Positions 1,499-22,813 of a stretch of DNA of 32,000 nucleotides are shown here, piece after piece. The stretch is from assembly GCA_003559395.1 (NCBI GenBank), contig PWLL01000008.1, positions 1 to 32,000 of the forward strand. Direction: 5' to 3'. Position numbers and translations under genes: made by a program. How positions within the stretch are numbered: position 1 is the first letter of the stretch; every line of letters starts with the position of its first letter. The notes beneath the pieces are model-generated. The model did no database searches. It worked only from the letters and a program-made list of their open reading frames with translations, and was not told the DNA's origin. Origin of the DNA: Candidatus Iainarchaeum sp. (GTDB lineage Archaea > Iainarchaeota > Iainarchaeia > Iainarchaeales > CSSED10-239).

Positions 1499-1524
1499 AA
1501 GAACATCACCACCTAACATTATAC

Positions 1525-1649
1525 TTGATAATTATGGACAATCTGCCAAATTTTGCATTAAAGGGTAAAAAAATAAGTCTTAAATTTGACATCGTGATTG
1601 ATTATTATGGTTAAGTTTCCAAATTTTGCTGAGGAGATAAAAAAATAAG
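1525..1649. repeat. Two imperfect direct repeat units of about 52 nt (1525-1577 and 1598-1649, period 73 nt) in an intergenic region
   Basis: Both units read TTGAT(A/T)ATTATGG..CCAAATTTTGC..N9-10..AAAAAAATAAG on the plus strand. CCAAATTTTGC is at 1546-1556 and 1619-1629. AAAAAAATAAG is at 1567-1577 and 1639-1649. Confidence 0.6.
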
Positions 1650-1665
1650 CCCTGCTCATCAACTA

Positions 1666-2397: not shown

Positions 2398-2411
2398 CCC
2401 CCTCGCTTTTT

Positions 2412-2792: not shown

Positions 2793-2812
2793 GTTCAACA
2801 CCACCTTGTTTT

Positions 2813-4365: not shown

Positions 4366-4367
4366 GG

Positions 4368-6332
4368 TTAAACAGCCTCCTCATTGGATATTTCTTGTCT
4401 TTCCACTCTTAACTCCTTATCGTCCTCGCTTACCACCAGATGTATCTGCTGTCCGGTGGTCGGGATAATATCCGTAACACTCTCTGAGTTATCAATCCAG
4501 ATCGGCGGGTGGAACCCATAGTGTTCAGCAAGGGTCTCTATAATATCCAGGCCCACATTAATCTTACCCCCATTGTTAAGGTTTGTATTATATGGAACCC
4601 CTTCGTAGGTGGTCTCACAACAGGGTTTTAGGCCACCGTTCACCTGTTCTTCAAAGAGCTTGAATTTTGCCAGCCGGAATTTGGAGTTAATCTTCTCATT
4701 CAGCATCTGTACTTTAGTCCGGGTAAACTCTTCCAACAGATACATTTGACGTTCCAGTTTCTCATACTCTTTGGCCAGTTTTTCTTCTTTCGTTTGCAGT
4801 TCTTCAATGCGCTTTTTGCCGATCTCATACTGCTCAATGCGGGCCAACAGCATTTCAAATTTTTCAATTTCTTTTTCGTATGACTGAATATCCTGCTGGA
4901 TAGGTTCCTTATCCACCTGGGTTCCTGACTTCAGACTCTCAATTTCTGCTTGTATCGCTTCCTTTTCAGCCAGCTTTTCCTGGTATTCAGAGTCGCTTTC
5001 TATACTGCTTTCTTCTTTCTGTATAGCTTCCAGTTCAGATTGAGCCTGGGCCAGCGTTTCATTATGGAGCAAGAGCCTTTCATTGTTGGCTGCTATGTCG
5101 GCCTCGGTTGTCTTTTTTTGTCCTTTGAGTTCTGCTATCTGAGCTTTAAGGGATTTACCTTCTGTGTTAATTTTTTCTAGCTTTTCTGATTTTTTGAGAT
5201 TAAACTTCTTTTCCGCTTTAGCAATCTGCTCTTGTGGTAGCTGCTGGCCACAGGTGGGGCAGGCGCCTTCACTATCGAAATTTTCGTTAGCCTTTGCCAT
5301 GAATTCTTTTCGCAGAGCGTCACACTGACTTTCCAACCGTTCTATTTTCCGGTCATGTTCGGCCAGTTCACTATTGAGTTTCCTGTTTTCGTAATTCAGA
5401 GTTTCTATGTTATCCTGAACTTTTCTGATCTCGACCTTCTTTTTCATAGCCAGCCCAGAAAAACGCTCATAGCGTGCGTTTTTGATAGCCAAAAGCTCCG
5501 AATCTACCTGTTGGAGCTTATTGTTCATTTCGGACATACCACCATCGGAGCTGATGGCCGCAAGTTCATTATTTTTTTCCTGAATCTTGTCTTTGCGGTA
5601 ACGTATCTTTCTGCGGATAGAGTCTTCATCTAGATCCTGGGGATCATCCGGCAGTGATTGATTCACTTCGTCGATCCGAACCGGGATCCGGTCTAACTCT
5701 TGGTTGATTTTTTTCTGTTGGGATTTGATAACTTTGCGATGTTCTTCAATGCTGCGTTCGGATAGGATATCTTGTAGGTCGGATAGGTCGTTGTTAGAGG
5801 CGATAACTTCTTCATCTGATACATTGCCACAGACATCTAGCAACGTCTCGCGGCGTTCCTCCCAGTGGATCTGCTCATTAAAGTAGGTAGGATTGGTGAG
5901 CAGTTTGAAAATATCTTCGTCTGCAATCTTGTCAATCTTAGCCGTGTATTCTGCCTTGTTGACCGGTACACCATTAATGAAATGGTCAGTGGTATGGCCG
6001 GAAAATGTCTTTTGGGCCGATCCACGTTTTTTAACCCATTTCTCTTTATATATCTTCCGGAGTTCAACCTTCTTGCCATTTGCAAGCTCAAGAGTCATTT
6101 CGGCTTCGTGCTCTAGGCCGTGCAGGGATTCTCCGTTTTCTTTGAGTGTTTTGATCTCAAACTGGGTCTGGTCCTGGCTGTCCTTGTCGAATAAAATCCA
6201 GGTAAAGGCATCATTTAATGTTGTTTTCCCGGTTTCGTTATCACCGTAGATTTTAATATCCCGGCCCTGTAAATCTAGTTCAAAAGACTCTAGCCCCTTA
6301 AAATGTCGTAACCTCAATCTTAACAACTGCAT
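4368..6332 (-). CDS. SbcC/Rad50-like AAA ATPase with coiled coil and CxxC zinc hook
   Basis: Walker A GDNETGKTT (nt 6219-6245). A coiled-coil region of about 400 aa is interrupted by CPTCGQQL (nt 5250-5261). C-terminal PIWIDNSESV is Walker B/D-loop-like. AAGAGGTG SD upstream. Confidence 0.8.
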   Translation of the reverse strand: MQLLRLRLRHFKGLESFELDLQGRDIKIYGDNETGKTTLNDAFTWILFDKDSQDQTQFEIKTLKENGESLHGLEHEAEMTLELANGKKVELRKIYKEKWVKKRGSAQKTFSGHTTDHFINGVPVNKAEYTAKIDKIADEDIFKLLTNPTYFNEQIHWEERRETLLDVCGNVSDEEVIASNNDLSDLQDILSERSIEEHRKVIKSQQKKINQELDRIPVRIDEVNQSLPDDPQDLDEDSIRRKIRYRKDKIQEKNNELAAISSDGGMSEMNNKLQQVDSELLAIKNARYERFSGLAMKKKVEIRKVQDNIETLNYENRKLNSELAEHDRKIERLESQCDALRKEFMAKANENFDSEGACPTCGQQLPQEQIAKAEKKFNLKKSEKLEKINTEGKSLKAQIAELKGQKKTTEADIAANNERLLLHNETLAQAQSELEAIQKEESSIESDSEYQEKLAEKEAIQAEIESLKSGTQVDKEPIQQDIQSYEKEIEKFEMLLARIEQYEIGKKRIEELQTKEEKLAKEYEKLERQMYLLEEFTRTKVQMLNEKINSKFRLAKFKLFEEQVNGGLKPCCETTYEGVPYNTNLNNGGKINVGLDIIETLAEHYGFHPPIWIDNSESVTDIIPTTGQQIHLVVSEDDKELRVERQEISNEEAV

Positions 6333-6347
6333 TTCGACACCTCTTTG

Positions 6348-6356
6348 TGGTATAAT
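6348..6356 (+). promoter_or_regulatory. Extended -10 promoter-like element TGGTATAAT on the plus (antisense) strand
   Basis: Exact TGnTATAAT at 6348-6356 on the plus strand. No properly spaced -35. It lies about 25 nt upstream of a plus-strand-oriented hairpin plus T-run. Confidence 0.3.
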
Positions 6357-6374
6357 AAAACCAAATATACTCTT

Positions 6375-6578
6375 CTACGCGCCCGTCTTAGCGGGCGTTT
6401 TTTCTTTTCCCATCTCCTGCCCTACCATTTTCAACGCTATCTTCGCTTCCGTTTCAATAATTTTCAGAGTTGCTGATGTTCCATTCTCCTTCTCTTCGAT
6501 ATCCTTCCTGGCCAGTCTCTGAATGTCTTTTAGACTTCCTTCGATAAGCCATAAGCTCACGGTAACGCCTCCTCTCAT
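6375..6578 (-). CDS. Small hypothetical helical protein (61-67 aa)
   Basis: The amino-acid composition looks protein-like (LKDIQRLARKDIEEKENG...). GAGGAGG is followed 7 nt later by an in-frame GTG at 6560, the likelier start. It overlaps 6454..6669 in another frame, so only one of the two may be real. Confidence 0.4.
   Translation of the reverse strand: MRGGVTVSLWLIEGSLKDIQRLARKDIEEKENGTSATLKIIETEAKIALKMVGQEMGKEKTPAKTGA
6380..6403 (+). terminator. Intrinsic-terminator-like hairpin oriented for the plus strand
   Basis: CGCCCG (6380-6385), 6-nt loop, CGGGCG (6392-6397), followed by TTTTTTCTTTT on the plus strand. On the minus-strand RNA the stem is preceded by an A-run and not followed by U's. 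Confidence 0.45.
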
Positions 6579-6669
6579 CCTGGACAGTCATCATAGCGAG
6601 TTTGGTGGTTACTGTGGCAAGAAGTATCTGTACAGCCCGTGTTGCAATTATTGTCCAGTCCCAGCCCAT
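6454..6669 (-). CDS. Small hypothetical protein with N-terminal hydrophobic helix
   Basis: ATG with GAGGAGG 10 nt upstream. The N-terminus WDWTIIATRAVQILLATVTTKLAMM is TM-like. The Arg-rich C-terminal half looks like out-of-frame translation of 6375..6578. Confidence 0.35.
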   Translation of the reverse strand: MGWDWTIIATRAVQILLATVTTKLAMMTVQDERRRYRELMAYRRKSKRHSETGQEGYRREGEWNISNSENY

Positions 6670-6884
6670 ACCGCTTTTGCCTCCTCATAACAGTCGGCGT
6701 GGTAAGCTCCATCGTAGTCGGTGTAAATTGCTTCGTCGTGCTGTTCAATGTAATCCCCGCACCACTCGCACTCTTCCAGATCGGGCTCTTTCATGCAAAT
6801 ACAGGGAGAGATCGGAAGCCCATCTTCTAACCCGACGTCATGACCGCAGTCTGGACATATAAAGTTACGATAGACTTCACTCAC
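6648..6884 (-). CDS. Cys-rich zinc-ribbon-like small protein
   Basis: CPDC...CIC...CEWC...H..C pattern. AAAGGAGG upstream. The GTG at 6884 has the best spacing; the ORF track gives 6893. Confidence 0.55.
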   Translation of the reverse strand: MSEVYRNFICPDCGHDVGLEDGLPISPCICMKEPDLEECEWCGDYIEQHDEAIYTDYDGAYHADCYEEAKAVWAGTGQ

Positions 6885-7050
6885 TATCAACACCTCCTTT
6901 CTTATCCTTATATATCTCGACGTATCTGCTCAAGATGGTGTCTATGGCCTCTGACGGAAAACACTTCTCTTTCTCTGCAATTTGAGAAATGTTTTCATGA
7001 ACACTTTTTTTAATGTTTACCTGAACGAATCTCGGTGGCATCCCGGCCAT
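6877..7050 (-). CDS. Small ribbon-helix-helix-like protein
   Basis: The ATG at 7050 follows AAAGGAGG by 6-7 nt; the ORF-track start at 7068 is a TTG. RFVQVNIKK (beta strand) followed by two predicted helices resembles the Arc/CopG fold. This is a pattern-level call only. Confidence 0.45.
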   Translation of the reverse strand: MAGMPPRFVQVNIKKSVHENISQIAEKEKCFPSEAIDTILSRYVEIYKDKKGGVDSE

Positions 7051-7081
7051 CGGTGCTCCTCCTTTCAATTCAGTAGATTTT

Positions 7082-7312
7082 TTATTGTTTACGCCGTAAC
7101 CTATCCTTAAAAAAAACTTCTTCTATTGGTAGGTTGAATATATCAGCTATTTTTTTTGCTTCTGATAGAGTAAACTCAGCTTGGTTCGTTTCTTTTCTGC
7201 TATAAGTTTGTTTGACTATGCCGAGCTTCTTGGCCATTTCATCTTGCACTATTGAGCGTTCAATACGCAGCGCTCGTAGTCTATTGGTATTAATTTCAAC
7301 CAACGCATTCAA
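7082..7312 (-). CDS. XRE-family (Cro/CI-type) HTH transcriptional regulator, first gene of the early operon
   Basis: LRALRIERSIVQDEMAKKLGIVKQTYSRKETNQAEFTLSEAKKIADIFNLPIEEVF is a typical HTH_3 domain. The start is a TTG (7312 or 7303) after AAAGGAG. Confidence 0.8.
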   Translation of the reverse strand: MNALVEINTNRLRALRIERSIVQDEMAKKLGIVKQTYSRKETNQAEFTLSEAKKIADIFNLPIEEVFFKDRLRRKQ

Positions 7313-7334
7313 CTCCTTTCTGTTAATTTGTTAT

Positions 7335-7363
7335 ATTATAGTATAAAAACACTATGAAGTCAA
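7335..7363 (-). promoter_or_regulatory. Near-consensus sigma-A/sigma-70 promoter driving the early (leftward) operon
   Basis: The minus strand reads TTGACT (7358-7363), a 17-nt spacer, then TATAAT (7335-7340). This is about 25 nt upstream of the SD of the XRE gene. Confidence 0.65.
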
Positions 7364-7440
7364 GGCTTTTTTTAACTAAATTAAATAATATATGGTTTAG
7401 ATCATGGTTTGTGTTAATCAGGATCGTATCATATGCTCCT

Positions 7441-7500
7441 AAAAGACAAAAGACAACCCCAAAAAACAAAAGATAACCCTAAAAGTCAAACAAAAAAACC
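7441..7500. repeat. Three tandem 20-nt A-tract repeats
   Basis: AAAAGACAAAAGACAACCCC / AAAAAACAAAAGATAACCCT / AAAAGTCAAACAAAAAAACC. Units 1 and 2 match at 17/20; units 1 and 3 match at 14/20. The A-runs recur at about 10-nt average phasing. Confidence 0.6.
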
Positions 7501-7522
7501 GCCAGTCATATAAACTGGCGGC
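7492..7522 (-). terminator. Rho-independent terminator ending the late operon
   Basis: The minus-strand RNA reads CCGCCAGU-UUAUAUG-ACUGGCGG, an 8-bp stem (7499-7506 / 7514-7521), followed by UUUUUUU (7492-7498). Confidence 0.8.
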
Positions 7523-7640
7523 CACAAATCAAAATATCCATTCTAAGGGGTCTGACAGACGATTTAAGAAGTGTTGGTATGATATACCAGGCCCCTACTA
7601 TAAAACTGCGATATTACCCCGGTTTTGTGGGCCGGTTTTA

Positions 7641-8901: not shown

Positions 8902-8948
8902 ACACTCCTGGGCTCCGGTTGGATCTGGTTATCGGAGCCCAGGAGTGT
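8902..8948 (-). promoter_or_regulatory. Perfect 16-bp inverted repeat (hairpin) between the giant gene and the lysis cassette
   Basis: ACACTCCTGGGCTCCG (8902-8917) and CGGAGCCCAGGAGTGT (8933-8948) are exact reverse complements around a 15-nt loop. The structure begins 3 nt after the stop codon (8951-8953). Only UUU follows on the minus-strand RNA, so it is not a classical terminator. Confidence 0.7.
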
Positions 8949-8950
8949 CT

Positions 8951-11900
8951 CTATTCTGCAAAAAGCATCAATGCTCTTTGCACCGATTCATCAGTAACGT
9001 AAGGTCGAGCCTCGCCGCTTCTTTGCGCTCCGGTAGCATCTACTCCGAGTTGTATCAGTATATTAGCATAGTGTTCCGCTTCTTCCCGGTCGCCGCGATC
9101 TACCGCGTTCCACAGATTCCCGTAATATTCAGTACGCAGTTTAGATACCGCCTGTTTTTCCTGTTCGGCAGGATCCAGGCCATTAAGTACAGCAGCTTCA
9201 TCTAACTGTTGTTTGAGACGTAACAGCTGACTGCCTGGTGCTATCTGCTGGTATGTTCTCTGCCACCAGCTCGGGTCTACCCTGGCGCGCCAGAGGTCCT
9301 CATATCCCTTCTGGGCCTGCCACCAACCCATCCCACGACGCATAGGCATTGTAAAAGCAAAGTTATTACCACGCAGGGAGAAGGGTACGAACTTCTCGTA
9401 GACCGCCCTTACTCTTTCGTCCATCTCCTGGTAGAAAGGCATATCTCCTTCTCGCCAGGGCATAGGCCAACCGCCCGGTCCGGCTTGAGTTCCGGTCGTT
9501 TGTTCTAAGGCAGTTCTTACTACCGGACTAAACTTTGAACCAAACAGGTATGTTATAGGATCATCGAAATACCGTAGTATCTCTCTGGCCTGTTTACCTG
9601 GAGCTGCGTAGTACCTTCGTTCATCATCGGGATCGTAAGTACCAATAATCTTTCGCGCAGCATGGATTATTGGTGTAACGTCTATATCTGTTCTTCTTCC
9701 AGGTTCATTCTCCCAGGCCCAGCGTCCGGTTAGTGCTCTGTTGGCGATATTAATTGCTGCTAACATACTGATCAACATTGATATCCAGTATCGGGCACCA
9801 AATTTGCGCACAACAGGGTCCTTGTTCTTTTTAAATGGAAGGTTCTCATATAGCGTTCTACCGAAGATCCGCATATTAGTATAGGTATAATCAGGAGATA
9901 GCCACAATAATTTCATTGCCTGTCTTACTCGCGGGGTAGCCCAGAAATGAGATTCCCATTCCTGACCGCCGAAAGCATCGTTTACCATCCTTGCCACTTC
10001 TTCTTTTATCTCTCGTATTTTCTGTGGCGAAGCATCTTTAGCGTTCACTTTCTGATCAGAAAGTGCTTCTTTAGCCCATTCGTAATAGGTGATAGCTTTA
10101 AGACCAGCATAATATTCATTCCACAGCTTTCTATCATACCACTCATTAGCCTGCCGCATTTTACGCACCAGACTTCCGGCACCAGGAATTTTTCTGGTGT
10201 GAGCTTCTAATTTTCGCAGGTCCTGGTTTATGCGGCGCATATGAGCATCAGGTATGGGATCGAATACTACACCGTGCATTATAGCATCCCTGAGTGCTTC
10301 CGGGGATCCACTTATCAGGTCTAATCCCAGTTGATGGGTCCTGCGAATAACAGCAGACTCATCAACTTCTTTAACCTCTTCTCCTACTGTAAAGAATCCG
10401 CGTAGGGGTTGAGTTATTTTTGCCAATGCGGCCTGCGCACTCTCGGTAAGATTCCAGAAGTGAAAACCGCTCAACTTTAAAGACAGACCTTTTGCATACG
10501 CGTTGAAAGCCTCTATAATCTGTAGCGGTTTCCAATGGAAAGGCTGTTCAAAGACCTGTTTGGTAATTTTATATGCCTCCGGGTCAACCGCAGCCTTACC
10601 TTCCCATAGTATTGTAGTGCCGTCTCTGGCCTGTCTCGCGTAGTATTTATTTATAGCCGGATGATCAACAAGCGGCCAGTGTGGAGGAGCCTGATTACTC
10701 TTTTGAATTATCGGTTCGCCTTCATCATTAGCGATTTTAGTTAATTCGTGGACGAAGGCCCTGTTAAGCGCACCCTTCCAGTTCAGTTCGTGCCAGAGAT
10801 AGTGCAGTTCTGCTATGTTCTGGGTGCGCGGAACCAAACCTGCCTCCACAGCATCTTCCAGTGTAGGGATGGTTCTCTGCATAGCACTCGGAACGCGTTT
10901 AGTCCATCTGTAAGCAAACTCTTTAATTCGCTTAGGTTTGTTCTCATAAAAGTGCAGCAGATAATCTTCAAGGTATGTTACATACTCTTCATCACCAACA
11001 ACCTCACGCATAAAACGGTTCAGGTCCTGTCTTGCTTTTTCCTGAAAGTACCTATACTCCGCTAATGCCTGCCGCATTTCAGGGGTAAGTTCTTCTTGTA
11101 TTTCTTCAGCGGTTTTGCCAGTCCTGATATTTTTAACTTCTTCAACGGCAGCACCCATATCCTCAAGCTGTTCTTCGGTAAACCGTGCTGACCAATCTAT
11201 CTTCCTATAGCCAGCCTCGATCTGCCGTAACCTGAACAACCTAGACCAAGATTTAATGATCGTTTTTACATTATCCTTATAATCATCAGTTAGATACTCG
11301 CTGGGGAGCAAACGCTCAACTTCCTCAATAGGCCGTATCGCAGAAACATCTATCTTCCTTTTCATTTCATGCCGTTTCTGAATGATGTCCTGTATCTTCT
11401 GATGTAAGTCAGGGTTCTGCCTGATCTGCATGTCGAGGCCCTGCGCTACATCTGGTGCTAAATTGCGAGCCATTTCAGTGTTGAGGAGATACATTGTATA
11501 GAAGTCGGCCATTAATTCGGTATGTTTGTTCCGGTATCTGTCCAGTTCGCCCTCTTCCGGCGGTCTTACCTGTTTAGCAACCGCCTTTAACTGTTCCCTT
11601 AACTCCATCTCTCCAACTTCAAGATCCGGGAACCGTTCTTTAATGCTGGAAGGATATTGGTTGTTATTTATCCTGTAATCAATTACATGAGCTACTTCAT
11701 GGCCGAGAGTTTCAAGGTTAGTAACATCTCTGGTCTCAATACGCTCGTCACCACCAATATCAGTGAACCGTGCAGCTGCCTTAGTCCGAAGTCCAGTGTA
11801 CCTCGCTGGAGCCGCAAGTTCTGCGGCCAAAGAAAAGACCTCGACCATGAATTCATCAGGTACGGGGTCAATGTCCAGCCGTTCTTCTATGCGGTACATC

Positions 11901-14900
11901 TCTTCTATCGGCTCGGAATCGGGTGGAAGCATCTTAACTATATTCAAATTATGTTTGGTTAAGTCTTGAAGTGTCGGGAGTGCTCTTTCTCCTACCGGAA
12001 CGAAGTATCTAGTATTGTACTGGATAATTTCACTGATTAACCCTGCGTCAAGAAGTTGCTGGCGGTTAGTTGTGAGATCCGGTCCAGCATCCTTCTTGAG
12101 TTCTATACGATAATCACCGGAGACAGTGCTTCTTTGTAATATCCAACTATTATCAAGCATAGCTTTCCAATTCTTATCAACAATTCTACTTGGTACTGTG
12201 CTAATATCGATCTCCTCTAAATCACGACTAGCACCGAGACGTTCAAGGACATTATCGATCTCTTTCTCACTTATAACTCTGCCGAGGATGGTTTCTCCCT
12301 CTTCGGTGAGAGCACGTTTAACTTCGATCTTGCTTGTAGGTAGTTTATCCCAGATATCAAGCAGGGCTCCGGTTATCATGTGAACTGTCTCTTCTTCATA
12401 CTCTGGTAGTTCAGCAACCTGTTCATCCCAAAGCTGACGCGCAACATCTTCTGCTGTCATATCAGGATCTGCTGGTTCTTTAATGGTGTTTTCATCTTCG
12501 TAGCGGGGGGAGAGGCCGGCTCTATCAATCCCCTTATTTATTGCCTCTTTTGTTTTCTCGATACCCAGACGCCTAACAGTATTCCTGGCATCTTCTATTG
12601 CTCGTAGTTCGTTGCTGCCATCTCCCAACTTAGCCCCTGATTTTCCTTCGGTAACTATATACGCCATCTGACCGGAACGGCCTGGATGAACGAAGGCGTC
12701 TATATCCTCAAATCCTTCAATCTCTACCTCTTTGCCATCCACGGCGACAAACTCTTTTCCATCATGTACGAAGTATACATCTTCTTCTACCGTTATTATC
12801 TCCCAGGTGCTCTCGCGAAACTGGTCTTTTTCAAGAGGTCTCCCTCGTCCGGGCCTCTGGTCGATTAAGCGTACCATCTCAACCACTTCACCAGACTTCT
12901 TGGTACGGGTGCCTGCTTCTACCGCAAGAACAATGTTTTTAGATCGTTGGTTTTGGAAGTAACCTATATGTCGTTCAAGAAAGGCGGGGCCTCCGTCTCG
13001 GAAGTCTGCACGAGTATGGTCGAATGTTATGGGATATACCTTATTCTTGACATTGAGCTTAATGTACCGAGTATCAGCAGCATCGTCTCTCTCTACTACG
13101 GATCGATCTTCGACAGCCTCGGTAATATCTGCGTGTAGGTTTTCAGTGCCCTTGTCTACTTCTCCGGCCTCTTCTGCTCGCCCATAGACCTCATTATGTT
13201 CTACCTCGAAGGCTTCAAAGACCTGGTTCTGTAAGTGTGGCTCTAACCCTAATATTCTGTTAAGGAATTTCTTGGTATCTCTCAGCTCATCAGTATCTTT
13301 AAGGTTGCCTTCATCTGTAAGAATGTCGTCTTTTATGCCCATTCTTTCTGATATAGTAGATAACCCTTCGTCAATAAACTCATACTCATCATTGGAAAGG
13401 TTAATATACATTTGCATCAGAGCATCTCTCGCAAAAGGACTGCTCAGATCGTCCTCATTATGGAACAATCCAGAACTCTCAGCCCCACGCTCCCCGCGCG
13501 ATAGTGCCCCAAACTCATTAAGACGTTGAGCAACGGTTGAGAGGAACCGTTTTTCACCTTTGAGGTTAGTAGTAACCAAAATGTATTCCGGAGGTTGTTT
13601 TTGGAATGAACGGTGAGTCCGTCCAAACCCCTGGAATACCTCTTTAACGTCCCAGCTTGGCTCTAAGAGATAATGTCTTCTTAATCTTTGGTTCTTGAAA
13701 TTTAAACCCGCATGATAGTCAACACCGGTATTGCCGATCTTGCTGAACAGCAGTATATGCTTTTCGTCGTCAAGAAAACGCCTAACCTCTTCCTGGACAT
13801 ACCCTGTTCCTCTGGTGTCTATATATTTGTTACCTTCCTCATCCTCCAAGACGCGTTCTTTGCGTCCTGTTATTTCAGAGACTCTATCTTTACCAAAAGA
13901 GTCTACCAACATATCAATCGGTGACTTAGGAAGCCTTACACCGCCCAGGTGAGCAAGCAATTCGTTCTTTAAGCGTACTGCTTCAGGGTCTTTCACCGTA
14001 TTGCCTTCGCTATCACGAACGGGTGTCCATACCGTTCTTGTCTTTCCGTCCTCTGTGGTAATTTTTACGGGTTCGTATTTCGTTGTCGGAAAGGCGCGTT
14101 CTACATAATCCATAATCATACTGGTTGGAGATACGTTAAAGTCCTGCAAAGACATATCAGGATCAGTACGGATACGCTGTAACTCTCTGCCCATAGAGGC
14201 TTCTCCTGTTTTATCTACCTGGATAACCGGAGCGTAACCCTGTTCTAAATCTTTCTCAATGCTCTCTATGAGAGTTGGCATTTTCATGGCTGTAAGCAGA
14301 TCGCTCCAAAATCGCTGGTAAGTACCGTAAAACTGTGATTTTGCGGCCCTTTTTGCCTGGGGTGATTCCCCCGCCCCTGTTGATTCCATAGCCGCGGACA
14401 TGTTTTGAAAGAGGATCTGCCACGCTTCAGCAGCCACGTTATACTGCTGTATTTGTTCTTCTGTCAGCCGGTGTTCTGTGTGGTCATATTCAATTCCTTC
14501 GTAGCTGATCTGTCGAGAAAGGTAAGCACCTTTTTGTTTGGAGTCGCGGGCAATAAGCTCCATACCGCCTAACCCGCTTGCGGATATCTGTTCAACGAAA
14601 TCCTCCATGCTGGCAAAAGGTGTTCCCTCGCCCCACAGGCCAAGGCGTTCAGCATAGGCAAGCGTTTCTGGGTCGTCAAATGCTGTAGCTGACGAATACT
14701 CTATTCGTGCTTCCGGGAAGGCCTCTTGTAATCGCAGACCGGCCATGGCCTGTAGGCTAGGTTCTTTCTCAATTCCAGAAGCGTTCTGCATCTTATGTGA
14801 TTCGTCAAAGACAATTACCCCGTCGAAATCATCGTCAAGCCATTCCATAAGCTGTTCTAAACGTGTTTGTTCCCCTTCGGGCACAATCCTTCGTGTTCCA

Positions 14901-17900
14901 TATCCATCACCGGCTGGCTCAACACTATATCCTCCGCGTATCATTGAATATGTTGTATAGAATATGCCATGATCAGGGTCCAGTTCATCGTTTTTGCTAT
15001 AATCATTCTGGGCATAAAGTATATCTTCTGACATATGTTCAGGATCGTGCTGGCCAACATCGCGTATATCCCTTTTGGCGGCCTCGTGCATATCACCCCA
15101 ACTGGCACTAATCCATACCGCTTTATCTCGACCCTGGCGGAGATTATCCAGTATTATAGCTGCTATAGTACGCCCCTTACCGGTACCTGTGCCATCACCG
15201 ATCATGTGTCCCTGCCTCACCCCAGAGGGGAGCATTTTCTGGTGAGATTGACCGGCATACACCACGGCTTCTAGCTGTGATTCGCTTATATCACCGGATT
15301 CTATTAGTTCTTTTGGCAAGTCTGGAGCATAGGTTATGTCTGGCGGTTCTGAGTCTGCCATAGCAGCCGTTTCCGATATCTGCGCCGGATGTTCCTTTGC
15401 TCCCTCTACCTTCAGTTTGGATGGCTTATACTTGCCTGTAAAAATATTATCGCTTAGTTTTCCTCTTCTCTCGTCCTCTCGCTGCTCGACTCTGAGAGTG
15501 CTATCAGTTCGGTCAGGCTCGTTACCCGATTCGAGCTTATCAGGATCGCCAGGTCCTCTAACAGCCGGATGGCGGCTTCCCTTGGGTTTTGGTCTTGCAT
15601 CATCCTGAGAAGGTCCCGTCGGTTCCCCAGGTCGAGGTGCTTCAACAGGAGGTTCAACCTCTGGGACGGGCTCATCAGGTCTAACATCTGGAACGTCTCG
15701 GACAGGTTCATCTCTCTCATCCCCAGGGCGAACGGCCACGTCGGGCCGGGTCTCAGGTTCATCCCGAGGTGGAGCAGGTTCACCAGGTACAGTTCGGATA
15801 CCGGGTCGCTCTTCGGATGGTAATCTATCAGGTTCTTCTGGTACGCCTGGTTCAGGATCTGGAGGGCTAACTGGTTCTCTGGGATCAGGTTCAACTGATA
15901 TATGTTTGCGATCTTCTTTCACTCCCCTCAACATGGGCACGGCCTGTCGTACATCTTTGACCTGCCCCGTTACTGGTGTTTCTGTAGTTGGACCATCCTT
16001 ATCAATAACGACAAGCTGAACACCAAAAGAAGTTCCGTATTTACGATACTCGCTGCCGTCTATCCCTATATTAGCCCTAACATTGTACCTTTCCTGTATA
16101 TCCTCCCACCATTCTCTGTGCGCGGGTTTATCAAGTGCCATCCCTTCACCCAGGATAGCTACCAACCTGCCATCATCACGAAGGAGTTTAAGAGCTTCCT
16201 CCATATGGCTTCGAACATTACGGGTATCTCTAACGCCCTCTAATCTACCTGCAGTCGACGAAAACGGGGGGTTCATAACCACAAGGGAAGGCGGTTCTAT
16301 TTTATCATGAAGTATTGCGTGTAAGTGCTCTGCATTTTCAGTATACACCGCATCGAATCCCATTTCACGCAATATATTAGCGCGGCGGTCGGATAATTCG
16401 TTGACCATAACCTGCTGGACTTGCATGCCCTTTGGGAAAACAGCCAGCCCGCCGATTCCTGCACTGGGTTCTAATACTATATCCTGCTTCATTATAGAGG
16501 CTGCCCAGTTAGCCAGGTAAGCAATGTTCGGCGGAGTAGAGAACTGCTGGAACTCTACACCCTCACCGGTGCGTTTGGTTTGAGTAGGAATCTTATCTAA
16601 AATATCTTCCTGGATTCGATTCAAGACTTTTACTGCATGGGTATAATCTATATTCCTGTGTGTTGGAAACCTGCCTGGGTGTGAAAGTATATATTTATTA
16701 ATACCTAGCTCCATAGCATCATAAGCGTCTTTAGGGGTATATACTCCTTCGGCCTGTGTTCCCTGGTAAGCGGTATCTGCTATAGCGAAAAGGTCACGCC
16801 AACTAAACGAACGGCCTTTTTCTAGCATATCATGAACACGACCAGCAATATCTGTTTCTGGTAAGCGAGCTTTTGCTTTAGTGGGGTCTGTTGTTGGTTC
16901 ATCGTCAGGCTTAATACGCAAGTCCTCTATAGCTGGCCTGCCGGTAGCTTCTTGTGTGAGTACAAACCGCTGTGCATCTTCGAGTGAACGGTGGTGTCCT
17001 ATAACCTGTAACGGTCTCTTGAAATCATCCCCTGGGGTTTCGGCACGCAACCGGAAAGGTGTATCTGCTATCTTAGTGTCAGTGGTATCTCTATCCCTTA
17101 CATCAACTATACTCCAGGGGGTGCCTGGCAGAGTCCATATTTTGCCACCGAGAACAGGATCAGGAACCTCTGTCCATTCTTCTGTGTCGGCTGGTTCTTC
17201 TGGTTCGAAAGCATCCTTAAAGCGCTCTCTTAATTCTTCTAATTGCCGTTTTTCATCTAAACTAGCCACCCTATCCGCTCTCAGCTTTTCGTCAAGAGCT
17301 TCCATGATCATATCGGCTTGATCAAAAAGCCCCTGGCGAAGAAGTTGCTCGTTCAGTTCTTGCATACTGCCAATATTTAAAAGAGCATCTGTCTCTGGTA
17401 CGTCTGCAAGTTGTGGATCTCTAGTTACATCTACACTCTGCATAATCCTCTCGTGTTCTGCTTCGCTATCTATACGAAGATCCTTAAACCGTTCAAATTC
17501 CTGCGGGGTAATGTGCTTTAAAACCTCTGTGCGGAATTCTTCCGGGTCCTGCATTTCGTACATGGCTGTTCCTTCAAGCAGATCGATTATTACACTGGCA
17601 TCACCATAAAGCCATATAAGTTTTTCGCCGGTCCACTTAATAGCTTCGTAATCATCTTCCAATACCTCTGATAGTACCCAGCGGTTAAGCGGAAGAGATA
17701 CATCCGGTGCATGATCGCCAGTAAGCGGGAATTCCGTCATAACAGGTTTAGGACCGGGAACGATTTCAGATACAGACGCAACAGTGGGTTCCTCTTCTTC
17801 CACCGGAGCTTCTTCTACCATAGTCAACCTGCCAGGACTAACACTTTCAACCCTTTCAACAGGACGACCAGCAACCATCGATATCTGGTCAACATGAACG

Positions 17901-19897
17901 CTAACCATAGTACCTAAACCCTCATAATCAATAACACTTCTTACGGTACCAGTCAACTCTTCTCCTTCTGGAGTGGTCCATGATACGCGGTCTTCTCGTT
18001 TGAATGTAGGTGCTTCAACAGGTTCTTCCGGGGGTATCTCTTCTAACCGTTGTTCCAGATCGTCTATCATCTGGTAATCCCTCTGAACAGCTCCTACCCC
18101 ACCAATCACAGGCGTTCCTGCTGCTTCTGCTTGTTCTGCCTGTTGAAGTTTTTCTTCAAGGCGTTGTTTAATTTGTCCTATATCTTCTGGAGTTAAATCT
18201 TCCAGAGGCTTATCTACTGATATGGTATGGAATGGTGAATCCTCAACCACTTCAGGAGGTTCTACCGTGGGAGCGTCAGGCATAGGTGCAGAAGGTGTTT
18301 CTACAGTAAGACCTTGCGGCCCCTCAACTATACGGAAAGGCCCTGTCGGTCCTGTTGATATGGCCGGAGTAGGTATTTCCATAGTAGTCGGGATAGTAGG
18401 TTGTACCTGTTGCGGCATATCAGGAGCAGTCGGTACCCCATAAGGCGCCGCTTGAGTAGCCGGCGGCGATATCTCCATACTGGGATCCGGTGTGGTTCCT
18501 GCGGGCCAGGCGAATTGAGTTCTTTGTACCTCTTGTTGTACCCCTTGATCTACCTGCTGGGTTGCCACTTGTTTGGCCTGTGGTGACATATCGCTGCTCT
18601 GGATCATATTATAGGCGGTGTCCCTTGCTATCTGAAGTTCTTTAAACTTTTCAGGATCTCCACTGGGCACATCAGGGTGTAATGTTTTTGCAATATGCCT
18701 ATAGGCACTCTTTATCTGATCCCGTGTTGCCGTCTCTGGCAGTCCCAGTACAGAAAAGGCTCTACTTCTTATCTCCTGCTCCCTTACTACATCACTGCGG
18801 GTGGCTTCTGCTTCCTGTCTTAACCTTTCACGGTAAGCGTTTAGCTTGCGTTCTATGGTCTCAGCATCATCCCCAGGACTTATACCAGCATCCGCAAATA
18901 TCTTTTTCCGGTTATCGCGGGCTGCATGGAATGTTTTATGTACCCGGTTAATCTCTGCCTTATCCTGCGGAGATAGTGCTGCTGTGTTTACCAGTCCGAG
19001 AATAGTAAGGCCAACCACAGAGGAACCCATATCCATAAGATCCAAAGGTTCTCTTTCGTCTGGGGGAGTTAATGCCCTTCTTGTTACCTCAGAAGCGGTT
19101 ACTCCTGCCGGTGCAGAAATTAAGGATCTGGTCAGGCTTTGCGCATATGGATATAACTGATCCGGTACGCTTGTAGGAAGTTCTTGCGCTAATCGCCCGG
19201 CGTAAGGAGCAACAGCACCCATCGCACCACCAAAAGCCAATGAGCTTGCGAAGTCTGCTGCGGTAGGCCGGTGTTCTTCGGGCATACCTTCAAGTTCCAT
19301 TCCTCGTATGCCAGCGAAACGAGCAGCTCCACGGGCCGCACCACTCAATGCCTCGGGCGTCTGTGCTGCTCTAAGCGCAAGTTCAGGAGCATACCTCGCT
19401 CCTGCATACCCCAGGGCCTGTGTTCCGGCCTGGGTAAAAGGTCCCATAAGCTTTAATCGTCCCAACCAACCGGCGGTTGATCCCAGGGTGTGCATGGTCT
19501 GATCGATTCTTTCATCACCAGTTGTAGAATAAGTACCCTGGCGCCTTTCTACTACTCCCGGCTGCATACCATAACTCTCCTGCCAGGCTTCCGAGAACCG
19601 GCTGAGAGCTGCATCTACACCAGGAGCCACCCTTCCTACCCATGTATCTTCATCAGTAAGAAACCTGGTTACAGGTTGTTTAATCTTTTCTATCTCCTGC
19701 ATCAGCAGAGGATTGTGTCCTACCCAGTCTATGGCCCGTTGATATGGAGTAGAAGGTGTGAACCCCGTATCTTCTGCCCACGATGCAATCGCGGCCCCGG
19801 GTGTTTGTGGGGCCGTAGCTTGCGGGTCCTGAGCTTGTGGGCTGGTGGGGGTAGGTTGTTGTTCTTGCCATATATTTGCAAACGGGTTAGTTGCCAT
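8951..19897 (-). CDS. Giant (3648 aa) multidomain polyvalent protein; putative ejected internal virion protein (T7 gp16 position)
   Basis: Uninterrupted 10,947-nt ORF. GGAGG lies 8 nt upstream of the ATG, inside the end of the preceding gene. Motifs read directly:
- TM-like SSVVGLTILGLVNTAAL (aa 291-308)
- J-domain HPD (aa 407-409)
- EPSAGIGG (aa 1143-1150) and NPPF (aa 1209-1212)
- GDGTGTGKGR (K1574)
- DESH (aa 1698-1701)
- GRTHRS (aa 2092-2097)
- HEVAH (aa 2733-2737)
- hydrophobic helix YWISMLISMLAAINIA (about aa 3365-3385). Confidence 0.9.
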   Translation of the reverse strand: MATNPFANIWQEQQPTPTSPQAQDPQATAPQTPGAAIASWAEDTGFTPSTPYQRAIDWVGHNPLLMQEIEKIKQPVTRFLTDEDTWVGRVAPGVDAALSRFSEAWQESYGMQPGVVERRQGTYSTTGDERIDQTMHTLGSTAGWLGRLKLMGPFTQAGTQALGYAGARYAPELALRAAQTPEALSGAARGAARFAGIRGMELEGMPEEHRPTAADFASSLAFGGAMGAVAPYAGRLAQELPTSVPDQLYPYAQSLTRSLISAPAGVTASEVTRRALTPPDEREPLDLMDMGSSVVGLTILGLVNTAALSPQDKAEINRVHKTFHAARDNRKKIFADAGISPGDDAETIERKLNAYRERLRQEAEATRSDVVREQEIRSRAFSVLGLPETATRDQIKSAYRHIAKTLHPDVPSGDPEKFKELQIARDTAYNMIQSSDMSPQAKQVATQQVDQGVQQEVQRTQFAWPAGTTPDPSMEISPPATQAAPYGVPTAPDMPQQVQPTIPTTMEIPTPAISTGPTGPFRIVEGPQGLTVETPSAPMPDAPTVEPPEVVEDSPFHTISVDKPLEDLTPEDIGQIKQRLEEKLQQAEQAEAAGTPVIGGVGAVQRDYQMIDDLEQRLEEIPPEEPVEAPTFKREDRVSWTTPEGEELTGTVRSVIDYEGLGTMVSVHVDQISMVAGRPVERVESVSPGRLTMVEEAPVEEEEPTVASVSEIVPGPKPVMTEFPLTGDHAPDVSLPLNRWVLSEVLEDDYEAIKWTGEKLIWLYGDASVIIDLLEGTAMYEMQDPEEFRTEVLKHITPQEFERFKDLRIDSEAEHERIMQSVDVTRDPQLADVPETDALLNIGSMQELNEQLLRQGLFDQADMIMEALDEKLRADRVASLDEKRQLEELRERFKDAFEPEEPADTEEWTEVPDPVLGGKIWTLPGTPWSIVDVRDRDTTDTKIADTPFRLRAETPGDDFKRPLQVIGHHRSLEDAQRFVLTQEATGRPAIEDLRIKPDDEPTTDPTKAKARLPETDIAGRVHDMLEKGRSFSWRDLFAIADTAYQGTQAEGVYTPKDAYDAMELGINKYILSHPGRFPTHRNIDYTHAVKVLNRIQEDILDKIPTQTKRTGEGVEFQQFSTPPNIAYLANWAASIMKQDIVLEPSAGIGGLAVFPKGMQVQQVMVNELSDRRANILREMGFDAVYTENAEHLHAILHDKIEPPSLVVMNPPFSSTAGRLEGVRDTRNVRSHMEEALKLLRDDGRLVAILGEGMALDKPAHREWWEDIQERYNVRANIGIDGSEYRKYGTSFGVQLVVIDKDGPTTETPVTGQVKDVRQAVPMLRGVKEDRKHISVEPDPREPVSPPDPEPGVPEEPDRLPSEERPGIRTVPGEPAPPRDEPETRPDVAVRPGDERDEPVRDVPDVRPDEPVPEVEPPVEAPRPGEPTGPSQDDARPKPKGSRHPAVRGPGDPDKLESGNEPDRTDSTLRVEQREDERRGKLSDNIFTGKYKPSKLKVEGAKEHPAQISETAAMADSEPPDITYAPDLPKELIESGDISESQLEAVVYAGQSHQKMLPSGVRQGHMIGDGTGTGKGRTIAAIILDNLRQGRDKAVWISASWGDMHEAAKRDIRDVGQHDPEHMSEDILYAQNDYSKNDELDPDHGIFYTTYSMIRGGYSVEPAGDGYGTRRIVPEGEQTRLEQLMEWLDDDFDGVIVFDESHKMQNASGIEKEPSLQAMAGLRLQEAFPEARIEYSSATAFDDPETLAYAERLGLWGEGTPFASMEDFVEQISASGLGGMELIARDSKQKGAYLSRQISYEGIEYDHTEHRLTEEQIQQYNVAAEAWQILFQNMSAAMESTGAGESPQAKRAAKSQFYGTYQRFWSDLLTAMKMPTLIESIEKDLEQGYAPVIQVDKTGEASMGRELQRIRTDPDMSLQDFNVSPTSMIMDYVERAFPTTKYEPVKITTEDGKTRTVWTPVRDSEGNTVKDPEAVRLKNELLAHLGGVRLPKSPIDMLVDSFGKDRVSEITGRKERVLEDEEGNKYIDTRGTGYVQEEVRRFLDDEKHILLFSKIGNTGVDYHAGLNFKNQRLRRHYLLEPSWDVKEVFQGFGRTHRSFQKQPPEYILVTTNLKGEKRFLSTVAQRLNEFGALSRGERGAESSGLFHNEDDLSSPFARDALMQMYINLSNDEYEFIDEGLSTISERMGIKDDILTDEGNLKDTDELRDTKKFLNRILGLEPHLQNQVFEAFEVEHNEVYGRAEEAGEVDKGTENLHADITEAVEDRSVVERDDAADTRYIKLNVKNKVYPITFDHTRADFRDGGPAFLERHIGYFQNQRSKNIVLAVEAGTRTKKSGEVVEMVRLIDQRPGRGRPLEKDQFRESTWEIITVEEDVYFVHDGKEFVAVDGKEVEIEGFEDIDAFVHPGRSGQMAYIVTEGKSGAKLGDGSNELRAIEDARNTVRRLGIEKTKEAINKGIDRAGLSPRYEDENTIKEPADPDMTAEDVARQLWDEQVAELPEYEEETVHMITGALLDIWDKLPTSKIEVKRALTEEGETILGRVISEKEIDNVLERLGASRDLEEIDISTVPSRIVDKNWKAMLDNSWILQRSTVSGDYRIELKKDAGPDLTTNRQQLLDAGLISEIIQYNTRYFVPVGERALPTLQDLTKHNLNIVKMLPPDSEPIEEMYRIEERLDIDPVPDEFMVEVFSLAAELAAPARYTGLRTKAAARFTDIGGDERIETRDVTNLETLGHEVAHVIDYRINNNQYPSSIKERFPDLEVGEMELREQLKAVAKQVRPPEEGELDRYRNKHTELMADFYTMYLLNTEMARNLAPDVAQGLDMQIRQNPDLHQKIQDIIQKRHEMKRKIDVSAIRPIEEVERLLPSEYLTDDYKDNVKTIIKSWSRLFRLRQIEAGYRKIDWSARFTEEQLEDMGAAVEEVKNIRTGKTAEEIQEELTPEMRQALAEYRYFQEKARQDLNRFMREVVGDEEYVTYLEDYLLHFYENKPKRIKEFAYRWTKRVPSAMQRTIPTLEDAVEAGLVPRTQNIAELHYLWHELNWKGALNRAFVHELTKIANDEGEPIIQKSNQAPPHWPLVDHPAINKYYARQARDGTTILWEGKAAVDPEAYKITKQVFEQPFHWKPLQIIEAFNAYAKGLSLKLSGFHFWNLTESAQAALAKITQPLRGFFTVGEEVKEVDESAVIRRTHQLGLDLISGSPEALRDAIMHGVVFDPIPDAHMRRINQDLRKLEAHTRKIPGAGSLVRKMRQANEWYDRKLWNEYYAGLKAITYYEWAKEALSDQKVNAKDASPQKIREIKEEVARMVNDAFGGQEWESHFWATPRVRQAMKLLWLSPDYTYTNMRIFGRTLYENLPFKKNKDPVVRKFGARYWISMLISMLAAINIANRALTGRWAWENEPGRRTDIDVTPIIHAARKIIGTYDPDDERRYYAAPGKQAREILRYFDDPITYLFGSKFSPVVRTALEQTTGTQAGPGGWPMPWREGDMPFYQEMDERVRAVYEKFVPFSLRGNNFAFTMPMRRGMGWWQAQKGYEDLWRARVDPSWWQRTYQQIAPGSQLLRLKQQLDEAAVLNGLDPAEQEKQAVSKLRTEYYGNLWNAVDRGDREEAEHYANILIQLGVDATGAQRSGEARPYVTDESVQRALMLFAE
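11528..11830 (-). other. Zincin-like HExxH metallopeptidase motif region inside the giant protein, aa about 2690-2790
   Basis: LETLGHEVAHVIDY (HEVAH at nt 11687-11701), with a candidate third ligand about 55 aa downstream in KHTELMADFY. The family could not be assigned by eye. Confidence 0.5.
13508..15280 (-). other. Strawberry-notch (Sbno)/DarB-like DExH helicase core inside the giant protein, aa about 1540-2130
   Basis: P-loop GDGTGTGKGR (nt 15170-15199), DESH box in VFDESHKMQN (nt 14795-14806), SSAT, and helicase-C block ILLFSKIGNTGVDYH...FQGFGRTHRSFQ (GRTHRS from nt 13624). A conserved-looking C-terminal extension (HMITGALLDIWDKLP...EGETILGRVI, aa about 2505-2541) carries the unit to about nt 12218. 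Confidence 0.75.
15455..15893 (-). other. Pro/Glu/Asp/Arg-rich low-complexity linker of about 145 aa between the MTase and helicase domains
   Basis: EPDPREPVSPPDPEPGVPEEPDRLPSEERPG...RDEPVRDVPDVRPDEPVPEVEPPVEAPRPGEP. A second Pro/Gln-rich linker follows the J-domain (aa about 434-560). Confidence 0.75.
15992..16543 (-). other. Gamma-class N6-adenine DNA methyltransferase domain inside the giant protein, aa about 1119-1302
   Basis: FSTPP..., motif I VLEPSAGIGG (nt 16448-16471), and motif IV NPPF (nt 16262-16273) 59 aa downstream. The motif I before motif IV order is that of gamma-class amino-MTases. Confidence 0.8.
18599..18760 (-). other. J-domain (DnaJ/Hsp40 N-terminal domain) inside the giant protein, aa about 380-433
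   Basis: AFSVLGLPETATRDQIKSAYRHIAKTLHPDVPSGDPEKFKELQIARDTAYNMIQ matches the helix II - HPD - helix III pattern of canonical J-domains (compare YEILGV...A....IKKAYRKLA.KYHPD......AEEKFKEI.EAYEVL). HPD codons are at nt 18671-18679. Confidence 0.8.
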
Positions 19898-22239: not shown

Positions 22240-22782
22240 TTAGCTCTGCCACGGCCAACCGTGTTCAGAAAAATAATCGATAGCATACGGTGCCGCGGTT
22301 CCTACAGCTTGCCCTATTCCTTGCCACATCTGTCCACTACGCTGCGCATCCATATCCTGTGCGCGTAAAGCTCTGTCCGCTAGTGCTGATTGTCTCTGAA
22401 AATCCTGCTGTTGAAGTCCTGTCGCATATTGCGCCAGGTTGGCCTGGTGCTGCATGGACAGATCACCGGCAGTAGACCTCCTCAAAGCGGCAGCCGGTAG
22501 TTGTCCGAAAAAACCTCTCTGCATGCTTTGGTGGTCTATGTTAGATAGTGTTTGATCCATAGTCCGCTGAAAACCCGGATCTAACGCCTGTTGCGCCCGT
22601 TGATAAGCATCATCCCAGGGGAGTTGTTCTACCTCCTGCTCTTGCGGTTGCTGTGTTGCCTGCGTATCGCTGCTACTACCACCAAATGCCCGCTCTAATA
22701 GGCCGCCCCCTATAGTACCTATAACGCCACCAACAGGGCCGCCTAAAGCTGTGCCTAAAGCCCCTCCGACGGTCTTGAACAT
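22240..22782 (-). CDS. Glycine-zipper membrane-active small virion protein (T7 gp14-like by size and position)
   Basis: The ATG at 22782 follows AAAGGAGG by 9 nt; the ORF-track start at 22791 is a TTG. N-terminus FKTVGGALGTALGGPVGGVIGTIGGGLL is a glycine zipper. The rest is Gln-rich. Confidence 0.6.
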   Translation of the reverse strand: MFKTVGGALGTALGGPVGGVIGTIGGGLLERAFGGSSSDTQATQQPQEQEVEQLPWDDAYQRAQQALDPGFQRTMDQTLSNIDHQSMQRGFFGQLPAAALRRSTAGDLSMQHQANLAQYATGLQQQDFQRQSALADRALRAQDMDAQRSGQMWQGIGQAVGTAAPYAIDYFSEHGWPWQS

Positions 22783-22813
22783 AATATACAACCTCCTTTA
22801 TCCATGGTTCGCT

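Follow-up and report, generated by a model that had tools for sequence, protein, structure and literature searches.

We analyzed a 32,000-nt stretch of DNA (positions 1 to 32,000 of contig PWLL01000008.1, deposited under Candidatus Iainarchaeum sp.; hereafter the window), in which all genes lie on the minus strand and one of them, at positions 8951–19897, is a giant open reading frame (ORF) of 3648 codons. The product of this ORF is quite probably a polyvalent protein of the phage type and the largest of the internal (ejection) proteins of a short-tailed, uncultured phage whose adaptor and nozzle are of the SU10/T7/P22 type. The evidence consists of the identities of its domains, an architecture of conserved ends around a variable middle, the position of the gene in a virion cassette, and the depletion of cysteine.

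One uninterrupted ORF, as the initial annotation of the window had it, was found, since 3648 codons follow the ATG without a stop; a GGAGG is sited 9 nt 5' of this ATG. The preceding gene, encoding a protein of 773 aa, has its stop codon 3 nt before the ATG of the giant ORF, and the two genes are therefore translationally coupled. Directly 3' of the stop codon of the giant ORF lies a perfect 15-nt inverted repeat (arms 8903–8917 and 8933–8947) with a predicted fold of 18 bp and −35.8 kcal/mol, followed by a short U-rich stretch; judged by its sequence, this hairpin looks like the terminator of the structural operon. The motif residues named in the initial annotation occur where it had placed them (HPD at 407, NPPF at 1209, GTGKGR at 1571 with K1574, DESH at 1698, and HEVAH at 2733). 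The hydrophobic helices it had put near both ends were located as well, and composition revealed both of its linkers, with Pro and Gln enriched over aa 401–600 and Pro and acidic residues at about aa 1320–1480. The features of the ORF are given below; names such as P0023 denote representatives among the best 150 of 1060 matches to the C-terminal module.

8951–19897, minus strand: giant ORF, 3648 aa, ATG start, no internal stop codon, no cysteine
18788–19897, minus strand: N-terminal region (aa 1–370), with a Pro/Gln-rich start and then Gly/Ala-rich amphipathic segments
18974–19030, minus strand: hydrophobic helix (aa 290–308, MGSSVVGLTILGLVNTAAL), Kyte–Doolittle mean of 1.58
18578–18775, minus strand: J-domain (aa 375–440, HPD at 407), with Pfam DnaJ, PDB, and NCBIfam matches
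16898–18577, minus strand: Pro/Gln linker, then an acidic stretch of helical character and a putative small beta-rich segment (aa 441–1000), assigned to no family
15938–16897, minus strand: helical N-domain and N6-adenine methylase (aa 1001–1320, motif I at 1143, NPPF at 1209)
15458–15937, minus strand: Pro/acidic linker (aa 1321–1480), by composition
13142–15394, minus strand: helicase of the Strawberry-notch (Sno) type (aa 1502–2252), with AAA_34 and Helicase_C_4 matches
11858–13141, minus strand: post-helicase region (aa 2253–2680), common only to the Sno-bearing relatives P0023 and P0024
11498–11857, minus strand: zincin-like metallopeptidase region (aa 2681–2800, HEVAH at 2733, E2794, D2798), by invariant residues
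8954–11497, minus strand: conserved C-terminal module, predicted to be all-alpha and defining the family (aa 2801–3648), with 1060 relatives and an AlphaFold2 (AF2) model
9728–9784, minus strand: hydrophobic helix (aa 3372–3390), by hydropathy
8903–8947, minus strand: terminator-like hairpin directly 3' of the stop codon of the giant ORF, by fold prediction

An exhaustive HMMER search with the C-terminal 1000 aa yielded at least 1060 relatives (clusters at 50% identity, E up to 1e-3), 274 of which were found at E <1e-30. In the best 150 of the 1060 matches, the match lies at the C-terminal end of proteins of 350 to 4333 aa. With the same query, a word-indexed search returned one relative and a single-sequence scan of IMG/VR none, and megablast/tblastn searches of the ORF and its C-terminus against cultured phages gave no match. 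The apparent orphan status in the word-indexed search and the single-sequence scan is an artefact of low identity (25–45%). An alignment-based scan of IMG/VR added 94 relatives, mostly on contigs of 35–56 kb, and the untruncated ones have lengths of 869 to 4061 aa.

The 150 representatives were compared with the whole giant protein. The C-terminal module (aa 2801–3648; hereafter the C module) was common to all of them, the zincin segment to about 60%, and the cargo to almost none: the Sno helicase was shared with P0023 and P0024, the methylase with P0011, and the N-terminus with the J-domain only with P0102. A Pfam census of 14 giant relatives recovered SNF2 helicase (7 proteins), Eco57I-type methylase (4), Sno (3), RadC (3), ddrB-ParB (2), GGDEF (2), and DnaJ (2), as well as MutS_I and HHH; these domains make up the repertoire of polyvalent proteins (PMC5512222). 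Among relatives of a size close to that of the giant protein, P0024 (3661 aa) has a Sno helicase at 1564–2302, P0010 (3984 aa) a J-domain, a helicase, and the C module, and P0003 reaches 3688 aa. In the smallest members (940–1100 aa), an N-terminal part of 200–330 aa, which often contains hydrophobic segments, runs directly into the core of the C module, and both cargo and HExxH are missing. In larger members, the zincin and the cargo are inserted between these two parts. Of 72 full-length representatives, about 60% contain at least one hydrophobic segment in their first 550 residues, where Gly-zipper motifs are enriched, and about 40% have a hydrophobic helix about 270–320 residues from the C-terminus. 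The initial annotation had proposed an ejection protein merged with cargo, and this fits the family anatomy of minimal and cargo-bearing members; homology to T7 gp16 was undetected, and packaging would follow from indirect evidence. The closest named relatives come from metagenome-assembled genomes of Bacillota, Limnochordales, and Dehalococcoidales and from Bacillus podophages. The host is probably Gram-positive or of a similar lineage, and given the lineages of these relatives a periplasm is not assumed.

The C module was modeled by AF2 with 42 sequences as an all-alpha fold (pLDDT 85.6, pTM 0.85), and about 20 invariant residues are spread across aa 2950–3525 in 69 full-length copies. Against the PDB, Foldseek gave only noise (best E of 0.28) and a profile search gave no match; the module was not matched in PHROGs either. 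Neither it nor the zincin clade was matched by any Pfam family, LPD and MPTase models included where Pfam has them. The last 850 residues are thus recognized by no library, in agreement with their earlier description as a region of about 850 aa with no nameable motif. Searches by hmmsearch against gp20 of Bacillus phage Pony and a Zobellviridae internal virion protein were negative. Among predicted viral structures (BFVD), 23 matches to the C module were found at E <1e-3. They are C-terminal chunks of proteins of uncultured Caudovirales, Cellulophaga phage phi19:3, and Escherichia phage PTXU04, and those of uncultured Caudovirales are annotated as 'large polyvalent protein associated domain-containing protein'.

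H2733, E2734, H2737, E2794, and D2798, which together form a gluzincin signature, are 100% conserved in the 69 full-length representatives. The HExxH zincin of the initial annotation stands in this respect as a motif with invariant ligands, while its fold found no profile or structure match. The annotation had listed a protease within an injected multi-tool; a self-processing peptidase is more likely than a weapon. On the SU10-like contig L010, a 1813-aa protein encoded at 14042–19483 takes the same cassette position. Its similarity to the giant protein is confined to the zincin segment (E 5e-20, HExxH at 921) and does not extend into the C module, which suggests that large proteins of the ejection slot may share the zincin more widely than the C module.

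The giant protein and three proteins encoded upstream of it (773, 183, and 131 aa) contain no cysteine in 4735 aa. About 33 cysteines would be expected in 4735 residues at the window background of about 0.7%, and most other proteins of the window contain 0.3–1.9%. The depletion extends to the whole family: only 97 of the 251,399 residues in the 150 representatives are cysteine, 114 of these proteins have none, and in the independent IMG/VR set the content is 0.040% vs. 1.12% in other ORFs of the same loci. Cysteine is likewise absent from T7 gp15 and gp16, five further gp16 homologs, and N4 gp50, gp51, and gp52. In our reading, cysteine is selected against where proteins have to travel unfolded via a narrow channel and an oxidizing compartment. 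The near-total loss across the family, shared with ejection proteins, argues for an unfolded chain during passage through the tail and is the strongest indirect evidence for ejection. Cysteine is unmentioned in a review of ejection proteins (PMC8954989).

The J-domain of the initial annotation, with its HPD at 407, was confirmed by a Pfam DnaJ match at aa 381–425 (38.4 bits vs. a gathering score of 27.8), by solved J-domains from the PDB in a profile search (E 2e-5), and by NCBIfam DnaJ/DjlA models, DjlA covering aa 352–417. The canonical features are present: helix I ending with LGL, a basic helix II, the HPD, and helix III with KFKEL. About 70 residues separate the domain from the hydrophobic helix on its N-terminal side. 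J-domains with an intact HPD were found in the relatives P0102 (343–405), P0041 (303–365), and P0010 (461–529), in all three downstream of Gly-rich or hydrophobic segments, and degenerate copies in P0003 and P0095. In P0010, the J-domain occurs alongside GGDEF, SNF2, and RadC; because such relatives differ in their remaining cargo, the place of the J-domain is constant while the other cargo changes.

DjlA, Pam18/Tim14, and Sec63 are membrane-anchored J-proteins, and Pam18 with mtHsp70 and Sec63 with BiP drive protein import in eukaryotes. The giant protein shares a canonical HPD J-domain with these and with the phage protein Rki, and the anchored ones are resembled by the hydrophobic helix about 70 residues upstream. 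All of them are small dedicated co-chaperones, whereas the 3648-aa protein has its J-domain as one module among several, and, unlike in the membrane-anchored J-proteins, anchoring and a role in import are here what we infer. Rki of phage RB43, the only characterized J-domain protein of a phage, redirects DnaK in host takeover and shows that phages make use of J-domains (PMC3486835). This stand-alone protein was the only find in the literature on J-domains in polyvalent or internal virion proteins, and the J-domain is unmentioned in a 2017 survey of 131 domains of polyvalent proteins (PMC5512222).

The helicase claimed as Strawberry-notch was verified by Pfam matches to AAA_34 (PF13872, aa 1502–1820, E 3e-101) and Helicase_C_4 (PF13871, aa 1993–2252, E 7e-69). 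It combines the Walker A motif GTGKGR and DESH with the Sno-specific C-terminal helicase domain. No Pfam methylase family was matched at significance; PHROG families of DNA methyltransferases match aa 1101–1310, and the order of the motifs, with motif I (EPSAGIGG, 1143) before NPPF (1209), is that of the gamma class. Together with the annotation of plasmid homologs, these data bear out the gamma-class N6-adenine methyltransferase of the initial annotation.

The region of aa 1001–2299, comprising the helical domain, methylase, linker, and Sno helicase, matches proteins on 618 plasmids as one unit (coverage 85–91%, identity 37–44%), and 305 of these 618 plasmids are predicted to be conjugative. 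The helical region of aa 1001–1100 is conserved in the plasmid homologs, which are annotated as bifunctional SAM (S-adenosylmethionine) methyltransferase/helicase. The best plasmid matches are found on Methylomonas plasmids, where they adjoin traD and topoisomerase III. On the plasmid of Methylomonas sp. LL1 (L097, positions 22588–32298 of the record), the best match is itself a protein of 3236 aa. It has no cysteine in its first 1781 residues and looks like a polyvalent protein of a conjugative element, comparable in scale to the giant protein. A Methylomonas Sno protein is cited among the few polyvalent proteins with this helicase type (PMC5512222). Among 50,697 cultured phage records (INPHARED, tblastn, E 1e-5), the methylase part matches 24, and no match was found for the Sno part. 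Phage P1 was absent from the matches, and its DarB is therefore a functional analogue rather than a close relative. DarB is packaged in the head and guards incoming DNA from type I restriction (PMC5512222). DarB and the plasmid proteins are likewise N6-adenine methylases fused to SF2 helicases; they differ in that the dyad of the giant protein is embedded in a protein which also bears structural ends. In the polyvalent proteins described (PMC5512222), an LPD36 domain lies N-terminal to the methylase; here, LPD families were not matched in Pfam at E up to 1.

The cassette upstream of the giant gene comprises the following genes; L004, L010, and L011 are loci of relatives.

25094–25624, minus strand: adaptor, 176 aa, phmmer E 3.5e-23 to the 179-aa protein of L010 that matches Pfam SU10_adaptor
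23206–25101, minus strand: predicted nozzle (tail tubular protein B), 631 aa, AF2 model with pLDDT 82.8 and Foldseek matches
22814–23209, minus strand: candidate needle or plug, 131 aa, no cysteine, matching phrog_20787, with orthologs at the same position
22240–22791, minus strand: protein of the gp14 slot, 183 aa, Gly-rich hydrophobic N-terminus, no cysteine, with orthologs in L010, L011, and L004
19901–22222, minus strand: protein of the gp15 slot by position only, 773 aa, Gln-rich helical and then Pro/acidic, no cysteine

The upstream series reported earlier (176, 631, 131, 180, and 773 aa) was recovered, the fourth protein having 183 aa, or 180 aa with another start. The model of the 631-aa protein, based on an alignment of 45 sequences, was matched by Foldseek with solved nozzles in more than 20 PDB entries (probability 1.00, E 3e-21 to 1e-13, TM 0.52–0.63), including those of Pa223, cyanophage A4, GP4, VP1, SU10 gp17, T7 gp12, and P22 gp10. 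On the strength of this model, the protein is a podovirus nozzle of the beta-propeller type. Its relatives are encoded on contigs of 28–37 kb with portal and capsid genes of the SU10 type, and in L010 a SU10_adaptor gene is directly upstream of the nozzle. In L004, L010, and L011, the order of the cassette is adaptor, nozzle, proteins of about 130 aa, about 150 aa, and 400–770 aa, and a large protein. Orthologs of the 131-aa and 183-aa proteins occupy matching positions in relatives, and with the adaptor orthologs in place as well the cassette is thus conserved. The assignment of the giant gene to the slot of T7 gp16, made in the initial annotation from the gene order, is upheld by the nozzle structure and the adaptor orthology. 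Neither Pfam nor PHROGs matched the 773-, 183-, and 176-aa proteins. The contig is without portal, capsid, and terminase genes, and the assignment of an SU10-like head therefore rests on the relatives. In SU10, the ejection proteins gp20–24, encoded after the nozzle and the needle, are present in virions and gone after genome release (PMC9509320).

In the order of transcription, genes for proteins of 668 and 707 aa are followed by those of 165, 176, 631, 131, 183, and 773 aa and the giant; downstream are a 138-aa protein, a glucosaminidase endolysin, a recombination module, and a Dam methylase. The giant gene of the window precedes a small gene and the endolysin, and its counterpart in L004 similarly precedes a small gene and a lysozyme. 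The 131-aa protein may by its position be a tail needle or plug; it matches phrog_20787, annotated as 'virion structural protein'. A PDB search of the concatenated neighbours gave a match only at the tail end of this protein, the last ~45 residues of which resemble C-terminal tips of tailspikes (5w6f, 6nw9) and Gp49 (9d83) at E about 1e-3. The 668-aa and 707-aa proteins, encoded within 26416–30566, contain three CarboxypepD_reg/Ig-like repeats and a WD40 propeller with a C-terminus like that of tail fibres, respectively, and are probably receptor-binding fibres. Fibre-type genes precede the adaptor here; in T7, the fibre gene comes after gp16. The module at 30–6332 encodes an SbcC-like ATPase (654 aa), RecT, an MBL-fold hydrolase, SSB, an HTH protein, and the stand-alone Dam methylase (30–506), so that the phage has a second adenine methylase besides that of the giant protein. 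An SbcC-like gene is also found downstream of the lysis genes in Bacillus phage Pony (L007). Between the endolysin and the SbcC-like gene (6333–7640), only small ORFs (40–86 aa) occur on both strands; holin candidates might be there.

The class of injected multi-tool proteins to which the giant protein would belong is already known. Polyvalent proteins with a metallopeptidase, methylase, and helicase adjoining virion genes have been known since Iyer 2017 (PMC5512222), and in N4-like phages the gp16 slot is known to hold a giant protein that carries an enzyme (PMC10925440). Disparate domains are joined in one chain here, with nozzle, adaptor, and fibre genes upstream and the endolysin downstream. 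Like the polyvalent proteins described (PMC5512222), it is a very large single polypeptide adjoining virion genes, in which a zincin-like metallopeptidase is combined with an adenine methylase-helicase dyad and disparate cargo lies between the two. It differs from them in that the survey is without a J-domain and that the C module and the zincin clade are outside Pfam; Sno-type helicases occur in polyvalent proteins only 'in a few instances' (PMC5512222).

N4 gp50 and DEV gp71 share with the giant protein a length of about 3400–3650 aa and the place of the last gene of the ejection-protein operon, at the gp16 slot. N4 gp50 also has no cysteine and has a metallopeptidase followed by a further C-terminal domain, and the N-terminal region of the N4-like virion RNA polymerases (vRNAPs) is implicated in injection. 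They carry an RNA polymerase as cargo, in contrast to the J-domain and methylase-helicase of the giant protein, which matched no RNA polymerase family in Pfam and gave no tblastn or hhalign match with N4 gp50. Like the giant protein, T7 gp16 is encoded by the last and largest gene of its cassette, with adaptor and nozzle genes and three smaller ones ahead of it; it also lacks cysteine and has hydrophobic regions near each end (PMC8954989). T7 gp16 differs by its lytic transglycosylase, which is phage-specific and not universal; we failed to find SLT or lysozyme families in the giant protein with Pfam. The giant is nearly three times the length of T7 gp16, has enzymatic cargo, and has no sequence or profile similarity to it. 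The initial annotation had regarded the combination as undescribed. This appears to hold for the J-domain and for the Sno helicase in a phage; giant enzymes at the gp16 slot and polyvalent methyltransferase-helicase-peptidase proteins were known. The conserved C module, like the J-domain, is not described, and the recurrent J-domain, the Sno-type dyad of a phage, and a very large cysteine-free family with an uncatalogued C module look new.

Several results weigh against the giant protein being a packaged ejection protein of this type. Only weak BFVD matches to 'internal virion protein D', the gp16 family, were obtained (E 0.012–0.07, TM about 0.2). In hhalign, the C-module profile reached a probability below 1% with T7 gp16 alone and with a six-member gp16 alignment, and hhalign/hmmsearch comparisons of the C module with T7 gp15 and N4 gp50, gp51, and gp53 were negative. 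Since no homology to gp16 was detected, we regard the C module as corresponding to gp16 in position and possibly in function, without claiming common descent. The zincin gave no peptidase match in Pfam, a PDB profile search, or Foldseek; its helices were predicted by AF2, with pLDDT <50 in the sheet region. The 773-aa protein has no relative detected at the matching position in other loci, no J-domain was found in 80 IMG/VR loci, in which the 10-kb flank cuts the N-termini of long ORFs, and the membrane topology of the giant protein is speculative. The giant ORF is on record from one 32.3-kb NCBI contig only, and an independent Logan assembly covers no more than the upstream genes.

That the 10.9-kb ORF is an assembly chimera, or a set of genes fused by sequencing errors, would agree with the record of the exact protein from a single contig. 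It is nevertheless highly improbable: chance does not produce 3648 codons without a stop, the composition of the ORF is uniform throughout, and the independent relatives P0024, P0010, and P0003 come from other samples with the same plan and similar size, because of which the chimera was rejected. A protein made late and left unpackaged, its gene simply standing last in the structural operon, with a role in the cytoplasm of the producing cell such as the methylation of progeny DNA or the remodelling of replication intermediates, would be in keeping with the recombination module just downstream and with the stand-alone Dam methylase, by which DNA modification inside the cell does occur. We consider this improbable, as an enzyme acting in the cytoplasm would give little reason for the near-total, family-wide loss of cysteine, which proven ejection proteins also show. 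The conserved parts of the family are not enzymes, the gene position behind the nozzle and small cysteine-free proteins is conserved, and the gene is tightly coupled to that of the 773-aa protein and followed by the terminator-like hairpin.

The C module might alternatively be an encapsidation or head-anchoring domain, with the 183-aa and 773-aa proteins alone forming the channel and the giant protein being pure cargo. The C-terminal 1400 aa of the N4 vRNAP are such a domain, and this protein has the same overall plan, with a metallopeptidase and then a further C-terminal domain needed for encapsidation (PMC5512222). The lack of gp16 homology and a predicted fold that looks like a soluble all-alpha bundle with one hydrophobic helix point the same way. 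We hold this to be possible but on the whole unlikely: similarity to N4 gp50 is not detectable either, the weak structural matches favour gp16-type proteins over the vRNAP, and the minimal members of about 950 aa carry no cargo, and the module must therefore do more than package cargo. For the J-domain, a trans-acting function in host takeover, by which DnaK would be redirected in the heat-shock response or in phage replication, is suggested by Rki, which acts in this way (PMC3486835), and by the concept of polyvalent proteins, in which each domain may have a separate target. Such a function is rather doubtful in view of the constant placement of the J-domain in P0102, P0041, and P0010 with differing cargo, which points to a role at the membrane-proximal end. 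The layout is also like that of the membrane-anchored DjlA, Pam18, and Sec63, and a DjlA match from NCBIfam was found.

If the ORF is indeed the largest ejection protein of its phage, then the events that we infer, namely packaging, ejection, a membrane topology, recruitment of DnaK, protection from restriction, and self-processing, could proceed as follows. The giant protein would be packed in the head and leave via the tail unfolded, before or with the DNA, and its hydrophobic segments would engage the cytoplasmic membrane. At the exit site, the J-domain would recruit host DnaK, and the 400-kDa chain would be pulled in and refolded. The methylase-helicase might then track along the entering DNA and methylate it against restriction, as P1 DarB does, and the zincin would cut the chain into working pieces, as has been proposed for polyvalent proteins generally (PMC5512222). 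A J-domain serving as a built-in import handle, through which Hsp70 would ratchet the chain in and refold it and might pull in the first DNA stretch, is a possibility that we put forward with the odds against it.

Should the import handle prove true, it would be the first use of host Hsp70 by a phage as a motor for protein delivery, and the translocation of ejection proteins, which is poorly understood, would gain a source of energy. A recurrent J-domain after a putatively membrane-active N-terminus offers a concrete hypothesis, DnaK-assisted import or refolding, for how ejection proteins of short-tailed phages cross the envelope, refold, and are powered. The methylase-Sno unit shows the exchange of ready-made anti-restriction modules between phages and plasmids. 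The near-absence of cysteine could serve as a simple marker for ejected proteins in uncultured phages, and the large family defined by the C module has a confidently predicted fold without a match among solved structures, Pfam, and PHROGs.

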